From the NCBI GenBank assembly GCA_000004985.1, contig GG738869.1: a stretch of DNA of 64,000 nucleotides; one strand, given 5' to 3'. The position numbers and the translations under genes were made by a program. Below are positions 2,671-7,297 of the stretch, in pieces. How positions within the stretch are numbered: the first letter of the stretch is position 1; the number at the start of each line of letters is the position of its first letter. Below the pieces are notes generated by a model. It searched no databases and had not been told where the DNA came from. It saw nothing but the letters and a program-made list of their open reading frames with translations. The stretch comes from Naegleria gruberi. Lineage: Eukaryota.

Positions 2671-4725
2671 TTAATCAGATAAATCTTCAAAGCATCTGCC
2701 TTCCTTTCTCATCAAATCAATGTGTGAATCAGCAACTCTGTCATCAACACCCTCAATATTCTTAATGATATCCTTGATGACATTGTAAGCTCTTGTTCCA
2801 AAACCTGAAACACCTCCACACAAATATAAATTTCCTTTTGATCTACTGAGCATTTGATAAACCTTTTCCTTGTTTTCATAAATGGCATCAGCAATCATCT
2901 TTCTGTCAGTTCCAGAGTAAGCAAAATGAGATTCAGAAATGAGACCATCCTTAACAGCTTGTTCAATTTCCTTCTTGTAAATAACTTCTTCAGGTCCTCT
3001 AACACCATAGAACAAAATTGAAGGACCGAATTTGATGTTTGGATTTCTCATTTGTTGAACTCTTCTTTCATCAATAAATCCTCTGAATGGAGCAATACCT
3101 GTACCACCAGCAATACAAACGATTGGTGTTTCAGGATTTTCTGGAAGTCTGAATGAAGAAGTTCTGATAACAACAGGACATGCAATAGATGGTTTGCACT
3201 CTGACAAGTAGTTGGAACACAATCCAAAGAATGTCTTGGTATTATCAATTGGCTGTACAAGTGGACCGTAGGTAATTCTCAAAATTTTTCCTTCTCCTCT
3301 CTTCTTTCTTTCTTCATTTTCTAATCTAGATGAAGAAATTGAATAGTATCTTGGTTGATTCTTTGGTAAGATACCAATGAGATCTTGCCATGTCACCTTA
3401 ATGGATGGGAATTTCTCTAACATATCTACAATATTTAACATTTTGTTCTTGACTTCAGTCAAGTATTTTTCACTCTTCCAAGATTCCAATGTAGCTTTTT
3501 CTTCGGCATTGGTTGCCTTGTCTGCCAAGAAACCTAATAAAGAAGGAGAAACGACACCATTCAAATCAAAGAATTGAGACATGGCCTGATATAAAGTAAT
3601 TGGGCTATCTCTAGTGGCAATAAATGGTGGCAATTCAATACTACATGTTGGTGTTTCAAGAGTAAAGATAATTTCCTCCATAGGCAAATCCAATTTCAAG
3701 AAACTTTCCAATCTTTTAACAAGAGATGATGGATTGGTTGGGAAAATGCAAATATGGTCACCAGTCTCATAATCTATTGGAGTTCCTTCAATATCAAACT
3801 CAATCTCAAGACGTAATCTATTGGATTCTGGACATAAATTCTTTACGGATTGAATCTTCAATGGGAATGGGTTCTTTGGTGAAACTGGTGAGCTGGCATC
3901 ATAGGAACGAACAAATTGTCTTAACTTGTCTCTATATTTGGCTTTATCTAGAAGACGAAAAAAATGCTTGCCATTTGTTGTCACACCTTCTCCCATTTGA
4001 CTTGTTTCACTTTGAGATGGTACTTGGCATGAAGATGCAGTAGATGAATTGGATGTTTCATTTTCCTTTTGTTTCAAGAATTCAATAAATTCATTCTTCC
4101 AATTTTCAAAATCAGTTTCAATACCTTCTTCACCACCATCGTCTCCTTCACCTCTCTTGAATTGTAAATCACTTCCCAAATCCTTTAAACGTTGTTCCAT
4201 TCTTTTACCAACAGCTTGATATCTTTCAGGGAAGTTGGCAGAATTTCCCAAACCAAAAATTGCATAATTTGGTGCATTGTTTTTGAAATCCAAACTCTTA
4301 GTATTGTCACTCATAAAAAATTCATAAAATGGTTTAGCATTGTCAGTTGGTTGACCTTCACCGTAGTTTGACATGATAAATAATACAATATTATACAAAT
4401 CATTTTTTTGTAAGCCAAATGACAAGGCCCTTTCTGGTTCAATATCACTCAAATCAACAACTTTAACACTTGACAAGAATGATGGATTTTTCTCCATCAA
4501 TTCGCTCTTCAAACCTTCAGCAAACATTTGTGCAGTTCCCGTTTGTGACCCATAACAAATTAACAAGTTTGTCTTGGACATGTCGACAAGACTTGCATGG
4601 AACTGTCTCATACATGCTGCTTTAAAAACACTTGTATTGGTATTCATTCTATGTTGACCAGAGCATGCATTGCGAAGTAATACACTGCAAGCATTCATTT
4701 TCAGTTTATTCATCATCATCTTCAC
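2671..4725 (-). CDS. Diflavin (FMN/FAD/NADPH) oxidoreductase of the cytochrome P450 reductase / sulfite reductase flavoprotein family, with an N-terminal presequence-like extension.
   Basis: Flavodoxin FMN motif LLICYGSQTGTAQMFAEGL. FAD-binding RYYSISSS. NADPH-binding CIAGGTGIAPFRGFI, then ...LYLCGG. The N-terminal ~50 aa are K/R/S-rich with no acidic residues (MKMMMNKLKMNACSVLLRNACSGQHRMNTNT...), which resembles a mitochondrial presequence. Single exon. Confidence 0.8.
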   Translation of the reverse strand: MKMMMNKLKMNACSVLLRNACSGQHRMNTNTSVFKAACMRQFHASLVDMSKTNLLICYGSQTGTAQMFAEGLKSELMEKNPSFLSSVKVVDLSDIEPERALSFGLQKNDLYNIVLFIMSNYGEGQPTDNAKPFYEFFMSDNTKSLDFKNNAPNYAIFGLGNSANFPERYQAVGKRMEQRLKDLGSDLQFKRGEGDDGGEEGIETDFENWKNEFIEFLKQKENETSNSSTASSCQVPSQSETSQMGEGVTTNGKHFFRLLDKAKYRDKLRQFVRSYDASSPVSPKNPFPLKIQSVKNLCPESNRLRLEIEFDIEGTPIDYETGDHICIFPTNPSSLVKRLESFLKLDLPMEEIIFTLETPTCSIELPPFIATRDSPITLYQAMSQFFDLNGVVSPSLLGFLADKATNAEEKATLESWKSEKYLTEVKNKMLNIVDMLEKFPSIKVTWQDLIGILPKNQPRYYSISSSRLENEERKKRGEGKILRITYGPLVQPIDNTKTFFGLCSNYLSECKPSIACPVVIRTSSFRLPENPETPIVCIAGGTGIAPFRGFIDERRVQQMRNPNIKFGPSILFYGVRGPEEVIYKKEIEQAVKDGLISESHFAYSGTDRKMIADAIYENKEKVYQMLSRSKGNLYLCGGVSGFGTRAYNVIKDIIKNIEGVDDRVADSHIDLMRKEGRCFEDLSD

Positions 4726-5359: not shown

Positions 5360-7297
5360 ATGATCAGACAATCTGCTTCTAAGCTTTTCTCTAGAGTTGC
5401 TTCCAAATCCATGCAAGTTAATGCTGGAAAGAATTTGGCTGCCTGTTCCATGATCAAGATGAATCATCAAACAACCACTCAAGCTAGAATGAATTTCTCA
5501 CAACAATACAATATGAATAGATCTGATAAGATGTTCTGTTTCCAATGTGAACAAACACAAAATGGTACTGGTTGCACAACTGTTGGTGTTTGCGGTAAGA
5601 CACCATCAGTTGCTGCATTGCAAGATTTAACCATTTATCAAACTCGTCAATTGTGTGCTTTGGCTACTTTGGCCAAGAGACAAGGATCTGTTGTTCCTTC
5701 ATTGATGGAAAAGGTTGATGACTTTGTTTTGAGAGCCATGTATAGTACTTTGACTAATGTCAATTTTGATGAACTCAGATTTGTCGAATTTTTGAAGGAA
5801 GGTTCTGAATTGACTCAACAAGTCAAGAAGGAAATGTTAGGTGGAAAGATTCCACAAGAATTCTCTGAATTGCTCACTGTCACTGAAACTGATGCTCAAT
5901 TCGATGCCATCTTGAGTCAAGCTACTTCTGCCACAGATGAAGCTACTGGAAAATTGATTGATATGGGTAAATCTGTTGGTGTTCAACCACATCACAAACA
6001 TTATGGAGCTGATACTAATGCTCTCCGTGAATTGCTCCAATATGGTCTCAAGGGTTTGTGTGCTTATACTAAGGAAGCTTCTCTCTTGGGTAAGAATGAT
6101 GCTGCTGTTGTCAATGAATTCATTAGAACTGCCATGTGTACTTTGGCTGGTGTTTCACCTGATGGTAAGGTTGACCCATACAATGCTAATGATATCATTG
6201 GTATGGCATTGAAGTGTGGTGAAGTCAACGTTAGAACTATGCAATTGATGGACGAAGGTGCTTTTGAACGTTTTGGTCAAATGGCTCCAAACAATGTTAG
6301 AACTACTCCACTCCCAGGTAAATCAATCTTGGTTTCTGGTCACGATATGGGTGATTTGTTGGCCATTTTGAAGCAAACTGAAGGAAAGGGTATCAATGTT
6401 TACACTCACGGTGAATTGTTGCCAGCTCATGGTTATCCTGAGCTCAGAAAGTTCAAACACTTAGTTGGTAACTATGGTGGTGCTTGGCAACAACAAAAGA
6501 TTGAATTCTCCAACTTTAAGGGTGCTATTGTCATGACTACTAACTGTATCATTGAACCAAGAAAGCAATATAAGGATAGAATCTTCACTACCTCAGTTGT
6601 TGGTTGGCCAGGTGTCACTCACATTAAGAATAGAGATTTCTCTGCTGTTATTGAAAAGGCTTTGGCTACAGAAGGTTTCCCAGAATCATTTGCCAATGAA
6701 AAGGTTGAACATGTCACAACTGGTTTCGGTCATCGTACAGTTTTGAGTCTTGCTGATGTTATTGTTAATGCTGTTAAGAGAGGTGATATTAAGAGATTCC
6801 ATCTTATTGGTGGTTGTGATGGTACTGAAGGTGAAAGATCATACTATAAGAATATTGCTACATCCCTTCCAAAGGATAACGTTATCCTCACTTTAGGTTG
6901 TGCCAAGTACAGATTCAACAAGATTGACTTTGGTACTATTACTACTCAAGATCCAAAGACTAATTCTGATGTTGCCTTGCCAAGATTGTTGGATGTTGGT
7001 CAATGTAACGATGCTTATGGAGCTGTAGTTATTGCTAGTGCTTTGGCTGAAGCTTTCGGTACTAAGGATCTCAACCAATTGCCACTCAACTTTGTTATTT
7101 CTTGGTTCGAACAAAAGGCTGTTGTTATTTTCTTGACAATGCTCCACCTTGGTTTGAAGAATGTCAGAATTGGTCCAAACTTGCCTGCCTTTATTCCTCC
7201 ATCCACTCTCCAATTCCTCGTTGAAACCTTCAAGTTACATCCAATCAATGCTAAGGATCCTGTTGCTGATATGGAAATGATGCAAAAGGGACTTTAA
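5360..7297 (+). CDS. hcp: Hybrid-cluster protein (prismane / hydroxylamine reductase, Hcp) with a ~55-aa N-terminal extension.
   Basis: Collinear with bacterial Hcp from MFCFQCEQTQNGTGCT onward (the N-terminal Cys cluster). Diagnostic blocks are INVYTHGELLPAHGYPELRKFKHLVGNYGGAWQQQ, IVMTTNCII, HLIGGCDGTEGERSYY, LTLGCAKYRFNK and LDVGQCNDAY. The extension (MIRQSASKLFSRVASKSMQVNAGKNLAACSMIKMNHQTTTQARMNFSQQYNMNRSDK) is basic and hydroxylated, with no acidic residues. Confidence 0.9.
   Translation: MIRQSASKLFSRVASKSMQVNAGKNLAACSMIKMNHQTTTQARMNFSQQYNMNRSDKMFCFQCEQTQNGTGCTTVGVCGKTPSVAALQDLTIYQTRQLCALATLAKRQGSVVPSLMEKVDDFVLRAMYSTLTNVNFDELRFVEFLKEGSELTQQVKKEMLGGKIPQEFSELLTVTETDAQFDAILSQATSATDEATGKLIDMGKSVGVQPHHKHYGADTNALRELLQYGLKGLCAYTKEASLLGKNDAAVVNEFIRTAMCTLAGVSPDGKVDPYNANDIIGMALKCGEVNVRTMQLMDEGAFERFGQMAPNNVRTTPLPGKSILVSGHDMGDLLAILKQTEGKGINVYTHGELLPAHGYPELRKFKHLVGNYGGAWQQQKIEFSNFKGAIVMTTNCIIEPRKQYKDRIFTTSVVGWPGVTHIKNRDFSAVIEKALATEGFPESFANEKVEHVTTGFGHRTVLSLADVIVNAVKRGDIKRFHLIGGCDGTEGERSYYKNIATSLPKDNVILTLGCAKYRFNKIDFGTITTQDPKTNSDVALPRLLDVGQCNDAYGAVVIASALAEAFGTKDLNQLPLNFVISWFEQKAVVIFLTMLHLGLKNVRIGPNLPAFIPPSTLQFLVETFKLHPINAKDPVADMEMMQKGL

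Follow-up and report, generated by a model that had tools for sequence, protein, structure and literature searches.

Hybrid-cluster proteins (Hcp) occur widely among microbes with an anaerobic or facultatively anaerobic lifestyle and have been implicated in the detoxification of nitric oxide (NO) and the production of N2O; to our knowledge, the physiological electron donor of class-I Hcp is generally not known. A 64,000-nucleotide stretch of Naegleria gruberi DNA (contig GG738869.1 of assembly GCA_000004985.1; referred to hereafter as the window) contains an hcp gene that lies head-to-head with a gene for a diflavin reductase, an enzyme with flavin mononucleotide (FMN), flavin adenine dinucleotide (FAD), and NAD(P)H domains, and raises the question of whether this reductase supplies Hcp with electrons. 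Regarding eukaryotic Hcp, the donor has been left open in recent work on Acanthamoeba and Chlamydomonas (PMC13632651, PMC8003979, PMC7412212), with ferredoxin as a hypothesis for Chlamydomonas (PMC8003979, PMC7412212). The reading that we prefer, with a probability of about 0.62, is that the pair forms a two-component, most likely mitochondrial, NAD(P)H-to-Hcp redox module in which the reductase acts as the dedicated donor; judging from the sequences, this reductase is the best candidate yet for the electron donor of a eukaryotic Hcp. A search of the literature found no paper that links Hcp to a diflavin reductase.

The evidence that carries this reading is the recurrence of the pair. The sequence-only reading, an earlier annotation made from the letters of the window, had described the two genes as divergent with no gene between them; the open reading frames (ORFs), strands, and spacing were confirmed, and the gap contained no ORF of at least 80 amino acids (aa), no Rfam match, and no tRNA match. 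Synteny, which had been proposed there as a check, was found to extend through the Naegleria clade and into two far more distant eukaryotic lineages. Together with the window, eight other loci (11 contigs) in three lineages carry the pair, and all nine share the head-to-head orientation and a spacer of approximately 400-670 bp. Within the Naegleria clade, the pair was present in four genomes, namely, the window, N. lovaniensis (L002; Hcp 76% identical to that of the window), a Logan assembly near N. lovaniensis (L005), and a more divergent metagenomic relative (L001), the Hcp and reductase of which are 71 and 60% identical, respectively, to those of the window. One or both flanks have been rearranged among these loci. 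The flank beside the reductase contains Lipase_3, Brix, and WD40 genes in N. lovaniensis and L005, a DNA polymerase B gene in L001, and an EGF-kinase gene in the window, and a block of IonTrans, S8e, UPF0172, and zf-CHCC genes, which is immediately next to hcp in N. lovaniensis, L001, and L005, lies approximately 16 kb away in the window. The intervening insert (7700-23000) starts with two ORFs of DUF4116 repeats (7713-8282 and 8686-11019, the latter with 13 repeats and 428 bits) and also contains kinase and TPR genes.

The second lineage (L006, L008/L009, L010, and L038) and the third (L011/L012) are far removed from the Naegleria clade, with 26-31% identity between reductases and 40-52% between Hcps (a matrix that did not contain L038); for the second lineage, the ranges were 26-28% for the reductase and 40-51% for Hcp, and the reductases of L006, L009, L010, and L038 are 42-54% identical among themselves. 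In the second lineage, genes for D-lactate dehydrogenase, FAD_binding_3, LSM, and SPX-EXS proteins have been shuffled around an intact pair. When the whole 64-kb window was compared with the distant paired loci by tblastx, coding similarity was confined to the pair; the few weak matches beyond it were all to L007, a locus without a reductase. Reductases of this kind share the C-terminal sequence R-x-x-E-D-[LVI]-[SA]-D and are referred to hereafter as the EDLxD type; every EDLxD reductase on a long enough contig was head-to-head with Hcp, save that of Willaertia magna.

Two sets of control loci were negative. When metagenomes were scanned with the family profile, 80 loci resulted, around which Hcp was sought within 6 kb; it was present at none of the 79 loci with a diflavin reductase of another type (CPR-, BM3-, or CysJ-like, with Trp, Tyr, Phe, or undetermined ends; CPR, NADPH-cytochrome P450 reductase), and the sole locus with Hcp was L038 of the second lineage. 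No match to a diflavin or ferredoxin-NADP+ reductase (FNR)-like protein (E-value of 1e-3 or better) occurred in the 5-kb flanks of 80 prokaryotic hcp loci, and the pairing is therefore a eukaryotic arrangement rather than a transferred operon; an inherited bacterial hcp-reductase operon was rejected by these loci. Given that the pair occurs in three deeply separated lineages, that the distant loci have no other coding similarity to the window, and that both controls were negative, the pairing is more than chance.

The reductase itself has the Pfam domains Flavodoxin_1, FAD_binding_1, and NAD_binding_1 and no iron-sulfur (Fe-S) domain, and its FMN, FAD, and NAD(P)H motifs, as well as its catalytic Cys and Asp, are all intact. 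Its AlphaFold2 (AF2) model had a pLDDT of 81.8 and Foldseek TM-scores of 0.7-0.8 to closed CPR structures. It had been described in the sequence-only reading as a CPR-type NADPH reductase, which holds for the fold and the three domains; the residues specific for NADPH, the membrane anchor, and the Trp lid of CPR are missing. In CPR, Trp677 stacks on FAD, and Arg597 binds the 2'-phosphate of NADPH. An alignment to rat CPR showed that the Ser of the Ser596-Arg597 pair was kept in the window protein and that the Arg was replaced by Gly, and a motif-column alignment showed that an equivalent of Arg597 was absent from 15 EDLxD-tagged members. In addition, AGGTGIAP and YLCGGVSGFG stand where CPR has GPGTGLAP and CGDAKxMA, one residue has been inserted into the FMN Tyr178 loop relative to CPR, and the RCFEDLSD-type ending is also present in the orthologs and distant members. 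The structural matches of the model included 1J9Z and 1JA0, which we take to be the W677G/W677X mutants of rat CPR, in which, once the Trp lid is gone, the nicotinamide can reportedly stack on FAD and the specificity for NADPH becomes relaxed. A reductase with neither the Trp lid nor the Arg for the 2'-phosphate thus suggests a relaxed or altered use of NADPH and NADH, and the use of NADH by this protein appears plausible from its residues. The N terminus also departs from that of CPR: the 53 residues ahead of the FMN loop contain seven Arg and Lys and one Asp or Glu, with a maximum Kyte-Doolittle hydropathy over 19 residues, KD(19), of 0.61 versus at least 1.7 in canonical CPRs, and residues 1-47 were disordered in the AF2 model.

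These departures are shared by a wider set of proteins. An exhaustive phmmer search was performed, and the 150 best representatives were sorted by C terminus. The CPR type, ending in DVW or ELW(S), had 103 representatives, and a transmembrane-like segment (KD(19) of at least 1.6) was present in 73 of its 84 full-length N termini; the corresponding fractions were 0/11 for the 21 EDLxD representatives and 1/7 for the 12 representatives ending in DVF. The EDLxD type is marked by its ending, the motifs AGGxG[IV]AP and CGG[AV]xGF, the residue inserted into the Tyr178 loop, and the lack of a transmembrane anchor, and all of these marks were found in the window protein, members of the second and third lineages, and protein P0243 of the rigifilid Lapot gusevi; the other members are metagenome or transcriptome sequences. 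Full-length members with a recognizable FMN loop carry basic presequences. The ending was not seen among the CysJ-like (Tyr), CPR-like, or BM3-like (Trp or Phe) reductases examined. On these sequence marks, the EDLxD proteins are a previously uncharacterized group of eukaryotic diflavin reductases that are predicted to be naturally "lidless" at FAD.

Regarding Hcp, its identity was established by matches to the Pfam family Prismane (PF03063, 482 bits, cutoff 27) and to the NCBIfam hydroxylamine reductase models NF003658 (680 bits, cutoff 367) and TIGR01703 (638 bits, cutoff 361). Its relatives in the PDB were 7DE4, 8CNR, and 1E2U, with homology over the full length to Escherichia coli Hcp (7DE4, 469 bits). 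The Cys spacing of the N-terminal cluster motif is C-x2-C-x7/8-C-x5-C in class I and C-x2-C-x11-C-x6-C in class II; an alignment of the window protein to 7DE4 required gaps of 3+1 within this stretch. When the protein was aligned with nine relatives from the database, the majority of bacterial length, H328, E352, C396, C486, C514, C549, and E584 were invariant, as were the columns of the N-terminal Cys motif, and the ligand-bearing motifs SGHD, THGE, NC, GGCDG, GCAKYRF, GQCND, and FEQK were intact; the invariant His, two Glu, and four Cys presumably correspond to the hybrid-cluster ligands of Desulfovibrio vulgaris Hcp, onto which we mapped them. The presequence before the Cys motif is rich in Ser and Thr, with nine Arg and Lys and one Asp or Glu, and a basic N-terminal extension of a like kind was found in all paired Hcps of the three lineages, the reductases of which likewise carry a basic, acid-poor N-terminal extension. 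The protein thus looks functional and organellar, and the mitochondrial targeting of both Hcp and the reductase is likely from their presequences. In a neighbor-joining (NJ) tree, a long branch set the second-lineage Hcps apart from the Naegleria clade; the deep nodes of this tree are unreliable, and we therefore make no claim on the origin of Hcp.

Coordinates of the gene pair and its parts in the window, and of the pairs in the second and third lineages
Feature	Sequence	Coordinates	Strand	Remarks
Diflavin reductase gene	window	2671..4719	-	single exon, 682 aa plus stop; presequence-bearing soluble "EDLxD" type; from ORF and Pfam
C-terminal octapeptide RCFEDLSD, family signature	window	2674..2697	-	catalytic Asp kept, Trp677 replaced by Ser, additional terminal Asp
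NAD(P)H-binding domain	window	2809..3114	-	PF00175; AGGTGIAP and YLCGGVSGFG; Gly at the CPR Arg597 position
FAD-binding/connecting domain	window	3316..3888	-	PF00667; PRYYSISSS motif
FMN (flavodoxin-like) domain	window	4099..4560	-	PF00258, residues 56-209 (684-aa numbering); GSQTGTA phosphate loop, Tyr at the CPR Tyr140 position
Reductase N-terminal presequence, residues 1 to about 50	window	4570..4719	-	likely mitochondrial targeting peptide; basic, nearly acid-free, no hydrophobic anchor
Divergent spacer	window	4720..5359	.	presumed shared promoter region, 640 bp
Hcp gene	window	5360..7297	+	single exon, 645 aa plus stop; from ORF and Pfam/NCBIfam
Hcp N-terminal presequence	window	5360..5530	+	57 aa; likely mitochondrial targeting peptide; basic, acid-poor
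Hcp N-terminal cluster motif C60-x2-C63-x8-C72-x5-C78	window	5537..5593	+	class-I spacing, with 4 residues fewer than in the class II of E. coli
Hcp	L006 (NCBI GCA_041694795.1, GC 0.46)	1280..3	-	cut by contig end
Reductase	L006	1951..3999	+	ending GRLLEDLAD
Hcp	L008/L009 (JGI)	about 1206..2	-	in L009
Reductase	L008/L009	1609..3645	+	in L009
Hcp	L010 (JGI)	7573..9414	-	
Reductase	L010	10001..11866	+	
Hcp	L038 (JGI)	4691..2716	-	one intron
Reductase	L038	from about 5245	+	
Hcp	L011/L012 (ENA, GC 0.57)	about 4659..1955	-	several introns
Reductase	L011/L012	5154..7172	+	

The window is AT-rich (GC content of approximately 0.33), with long ORFs that lack introns. The reductase gene had previously been given a GTG start at 4725, which is an artefact because a bacterial start-codon rule had been applied; its first ATG is at 4719, and the protein therefore has 682 aa. 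The distance between the ATG codons of the two genes is 640 bp instead of the 634 bp that followed from the earlier coordinates. A scan of the spacer for bacterial promoters was empty, which is irrelevant here.

In the module that we prefer, the soluble diflavin reductase would accept a hydride from NAD(P)H onto FAD and pass single electrons via FMN to the N-terminal [4Fe-4S] cluster of Hcp, from which they would move on to the hybrid [4Fe-2S-2O] cluster for the reduction of NO to N2O and/or of hydroxylamine to ammonia. The site of these reactions would most likely be the mitochondrial matrix, and the head-to-head genes around a spacer of approximately 0.4-0.7 kb may be transcribed coordinately from a shared divergent promoter region. 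It is from the recurrent adjacency that we infer electron transfer from the reductase to Hcp; the localization, co-regulation, substrate (NO or hydroxylamine), and preference for NADH or NADPH are likewise inferred.

Several results weigh against this reading. The sample of EDLxD reductases on long contigs is small, with ten lineage or species points, and the number of independent supergroups among the paired lineages is uncertain. Eukaryotic Hcp loci without a reductase nearby were found in L007 and Closterium. In W. magna, the adjacency has been lost, with the genes on different contigs; we counted the retention of both unlinked genes in favor of the module, and the reductase retains its Brix/Lipase_3/WD40 neighborhood. 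The coherence of the EDLxD group is also in question: NJ trees separated the CPR (Trp) clade and recovered the exact EDLxD set in 26 of 100 bootstraps, and in a leave-group-out test with hidden Markov models from which the C terminus had been removed, the window protein scored 474 bits with the EDLxD profile and 445 with each of the Trp- and Phe-type profiles. Naegleria proteins thus favored the EDLxD profile by only some 10-30 bits (approximately 29 for the window protein), and the Willaertia reductase favored the Phe-type profile. The monophyly of the EDLxD proteins is not robust in these trees and profile comparisons, although the motif-level characters are shared. Regarding the promoter, an alignment of the four Naegleria spacers with MAFFT had 58% column identity and no conserved blocks, and a k-mer test revealed only A-runs and CA repeats with no conserved motif; a conserved bidirectional-promoter motif was rejected by these comparisons. 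Codon usage, which the sequence-only reading had described as strongly biased and ribosomal-protein-like in both genes, is so in Hcp only. Hcp had an effective number of codons (Nc) of 31.2 and a ribosomal-protein-likeness score of 0.01 against a window median near -0.95, and was by far the most ribosomal-protein-like gene of the window and the sole one with a strong bias; the reductase showed a modest bias (Nc of 37.1, a score of -0.67, and a rank of 3 among 25 in the window).

The main rival explanation is that the two genes are co-regulated neighbors within one hypoxia or nitrosative-stress program, in which the reductase feeds another mitochondrial acceptor, such as cytochrome b5, a haem protein, a flavohaemoglobin-like protein, or Fe-S assembly, and Hcp takes electrons from ferredoxin. 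Organellar diflavin reductases with other or orphan acceptors exist, an example being GiOR-1 of Giardia, a mitosomal, NADPH-dependent enzyme by which ferredoxin is not reduced (PMC3044749); for Chlamydomonas HCP4, the proposed donor is ferredoxin (PMC8003979), and some eukaryotic Hcps have no linked reductase, all of which lend this explanation some weight. We nevertheless regard it as unlikely: co-regulation alone rarely keeps genes adjacent when their proteins are 26-30% identical, no third gene is common to the window and the distant paired loci, and apart from Willaertia, all long-contig EDLxD reductases adjoin Hcp.

An explanation without any functional coupling, in which a chance ancestral neighborhood has survived or a two-gene piece of DNA has moved between eukaryotes, may appeal to microsynteny being general within Naegleria, where Hcp in L001, L002, and L005 has the IonTrans/S8e block after it, and to the co-variation of the Hcp and reductase distance matrices (r = 0.97, Mantel p of approximately 2e-4), which is expected for any two co-inherited genes. 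It appears improbable against flanks that differ on one or both sides among the Naegleria loci and are shared with the window in none of the distant lineages, an orientation and spacer size that are constant in nine loci, a like presequence on both proteins, and the negative results of both control sets; moreover, a cassette that had been transferred and then retained would itself imply a joint function. The sequence-only reading had named as its counter-case a reductase with orthologs that are ordinary CPRs of the endoplasmic reticulum (ER) or methionine synthase reductases (MTRR) and have no conserved adjacency to hcp; the results pointed in the opposite direction. That the protein is the organism's ordinary ER CPR (or MTRR, NDOR1, or CysJ) and lies beside Hcp by accident is in accordance with its CPR fold and with its best named matches in databases and its closest solved relatives in the PDB (E-value of approximately 1e-63), which are CPRs at 25-31% identity. 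We consider this highly improbable, since the protein has no transmembrane anchor, Ser in place of Trp677, Gly in place of Arg597, and further family-specific motif changes, and since the adjacency recurs in distant lineages. In direct comparisons with CysJ models, MTRR, and CPR, from which NDOR1/Tah18 was left out, the protein scored 213 bits with TIGR01931 (cutoff 668) and 149 bits with NF008197 (cutoff 838) for CysJ, and matched the MTRR chain 2QTL weakly (approximately 99 bits); an ordinary ER CPR, MTRR, or CysJ was rejected.

A broader form of the module may be considered, in which EDLxD reductases are a dedicated, NADH-capable family and the long-missing physiological donor of class-I-type Hcp in eukaryotes, within an ancient mitochondrial module that possibly dates from early eukaryotes and has either been retained head-to-head or moved as a cassette across supergroups. 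We put this forward tentatively, as a possibility that we would not favor at present.

Some further observations concern the proteins and loci described above. In the second-lineage reductases of L006, L009, and L010 (P0407, P0440, and P0324), the position of the FMN-stacking Tyr140 is occupied by Thr or Ala (by Ser in P0317, a related protein), and SQGGT replaces SQTGT in the phosphate loop; FMN binding may be altered in these proteins. Eukaryotic diflavin reductases that end in DVF(x), with a Phe lid, form a second presequence-bearing set without an anchor (P0244, P0248, P0260, P0307, P0359, P0365, P0375, and others), and in the metagenome scan, no locus with a Phe-ending reductase had Hcp in its vicinity. 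The 90%-identity cluster of reductase P0250 lists an unrelated 35-aa fragment of an Acinetobacter baumannii IS5 transposase, which looks like a clustering artefact. The deposited W. magna reductase (P0003, 607 aa; JBEGDK010000149.1, L004 9830-11821) looks N-terminally truncated, as its ORF reaches an upstream in-frame ATG that adds the FMN phosphate loop and a presequence resembling a mitochondrial targeting sequence. In L001, a 137-aa "gene" called between the pair (4515-4928, minus strand) overlaps the Hcp upstream region, has no Pfam match, and is probably spurious. The Closterium sp. locus (CANJKZ010000742.1, L173) contains tandem Hcp genes (10001-12764 and 15604-18665) with no diflavin reductase within 10 kb, and Hcp of the green lineage seems to follow a different arrangement.

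In the window, a tRNA-Val(AAC) gene is located at 7469-7542 on the minus strand, approximately 170 bp beyond the stop codon of Hcp, and a tRNA-Leu(CAA) gene at 15171-15251 on the plus strand, farther from Hcp. On the other side of the pair, an EGF-repeat, single-pass, receptor-like protein kinase is encoded by two plus-strand ORFs (329-1927 and 1952-2371) that are separated by approximately 24 nt; the kinase domain runs across this break, for which a short intron or a frameshift is the probable cause.

The cloning of N. gruberi Hcp dates back to 2006 (PMC1484493), and the Hcp of Acanthamoeba has been shown by experiment to be mitochondrial and is induced by anoxia (PMC13632651); Hcp in Naegleria and a mitochondrial Hcp in an amoeba were thus already known, and what is added here is the two-component Hcp module on an uncharacterized group of diflavin reductases. 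A partner backed by synteny makes the question of the Hcp donor testable with two recombinant proteins, and an FAD site that lacks a lid by nature bears on questions of flavoenzyme mechanism and cofactor specificity. The pair is also a rare eukaryotic case of genes kept together at 26-30% protein identity; if the module is indeed ancient, it would be one of a very small number of functional gene clusters with deep conservation in eukaryotes. It also has a bearing on the anaerobic metabolism of nitrogen oxides in the mitochondria of Naegleria, including relatives of the pathogen N. fowleri.

Among known systems, hcp-hcr of E. coli is the closest in design, in that a gene for a pyridine-nucleotide-dependent flavoprotein lies beside hcp and its product is thought to feed Hcp for the reduction of NO or hydroxylamine. 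Hcr, which is FNR-like, contains a single FAD and a [2Fe-2S] cluster, whereas the reductase described here is an FMN and FAD diflavin enzyme with the CPR fold. The E. coli genes form an operon, whereas those of the window are on opposite strands, head-to-head, with separate transcripts, and E. coli Hcp belongs to class II, whereas the Hcp of the window has class-I Cys spacing and, like its partner, a eukaryotic presequence. The proposal that the pair is a eukaryotic counterpart of hcp-hcr built from a different reductase family was supported by the diflavin nature of the enzyme and the conserved adjacency, and the partnership is analogous to hcp-hcr, neither homologous to it nor inherited from it.

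CPR (POR) shares with the reductase its three-domain architecture and fold, the FMN loop, the RxYS motif for FAD, the GxG nucleotide loop, and the catalytic Cys and Asp. The reductase differs from CPR in having a presequence instead of an anchor, Ser or Ala for the Trp lid, a terminal Asp, no Arg597, the AGGxG and CGG[AV]xGF variants, the insertion in the Tyr178 loop, and Hcp, not P450s, as its genomic partner. Diflavin reductases that feed Fe-S partners include CysJ with CysI in sulfite reductase, Tah18/NDOR1 with Dre2, and the CPR-like domain of pyruvate:NADP+ oxidoreductase (PNO). Together with GiOR-1, which has been described as Tah18-like (PMC3044749), these systems provide a precedent for an FMN/FAD reductase with an Fe-S partner or in a mitochondrion-related organelle; unlike them, the window reductase scores below the CysJ cutoffs, is unfused to its partner, and carries the EDLxD C terminus. 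Acanthamoeba Hcp and Chlamydomonas HCP2 are mitochondrial by localization or prediction and are induced by anoxia, nitrate, or darkness (PMC13632651; PMC7412212). The studies on these two proteins name no reductase partner, for which the locus in the window supplies a specific candidate.

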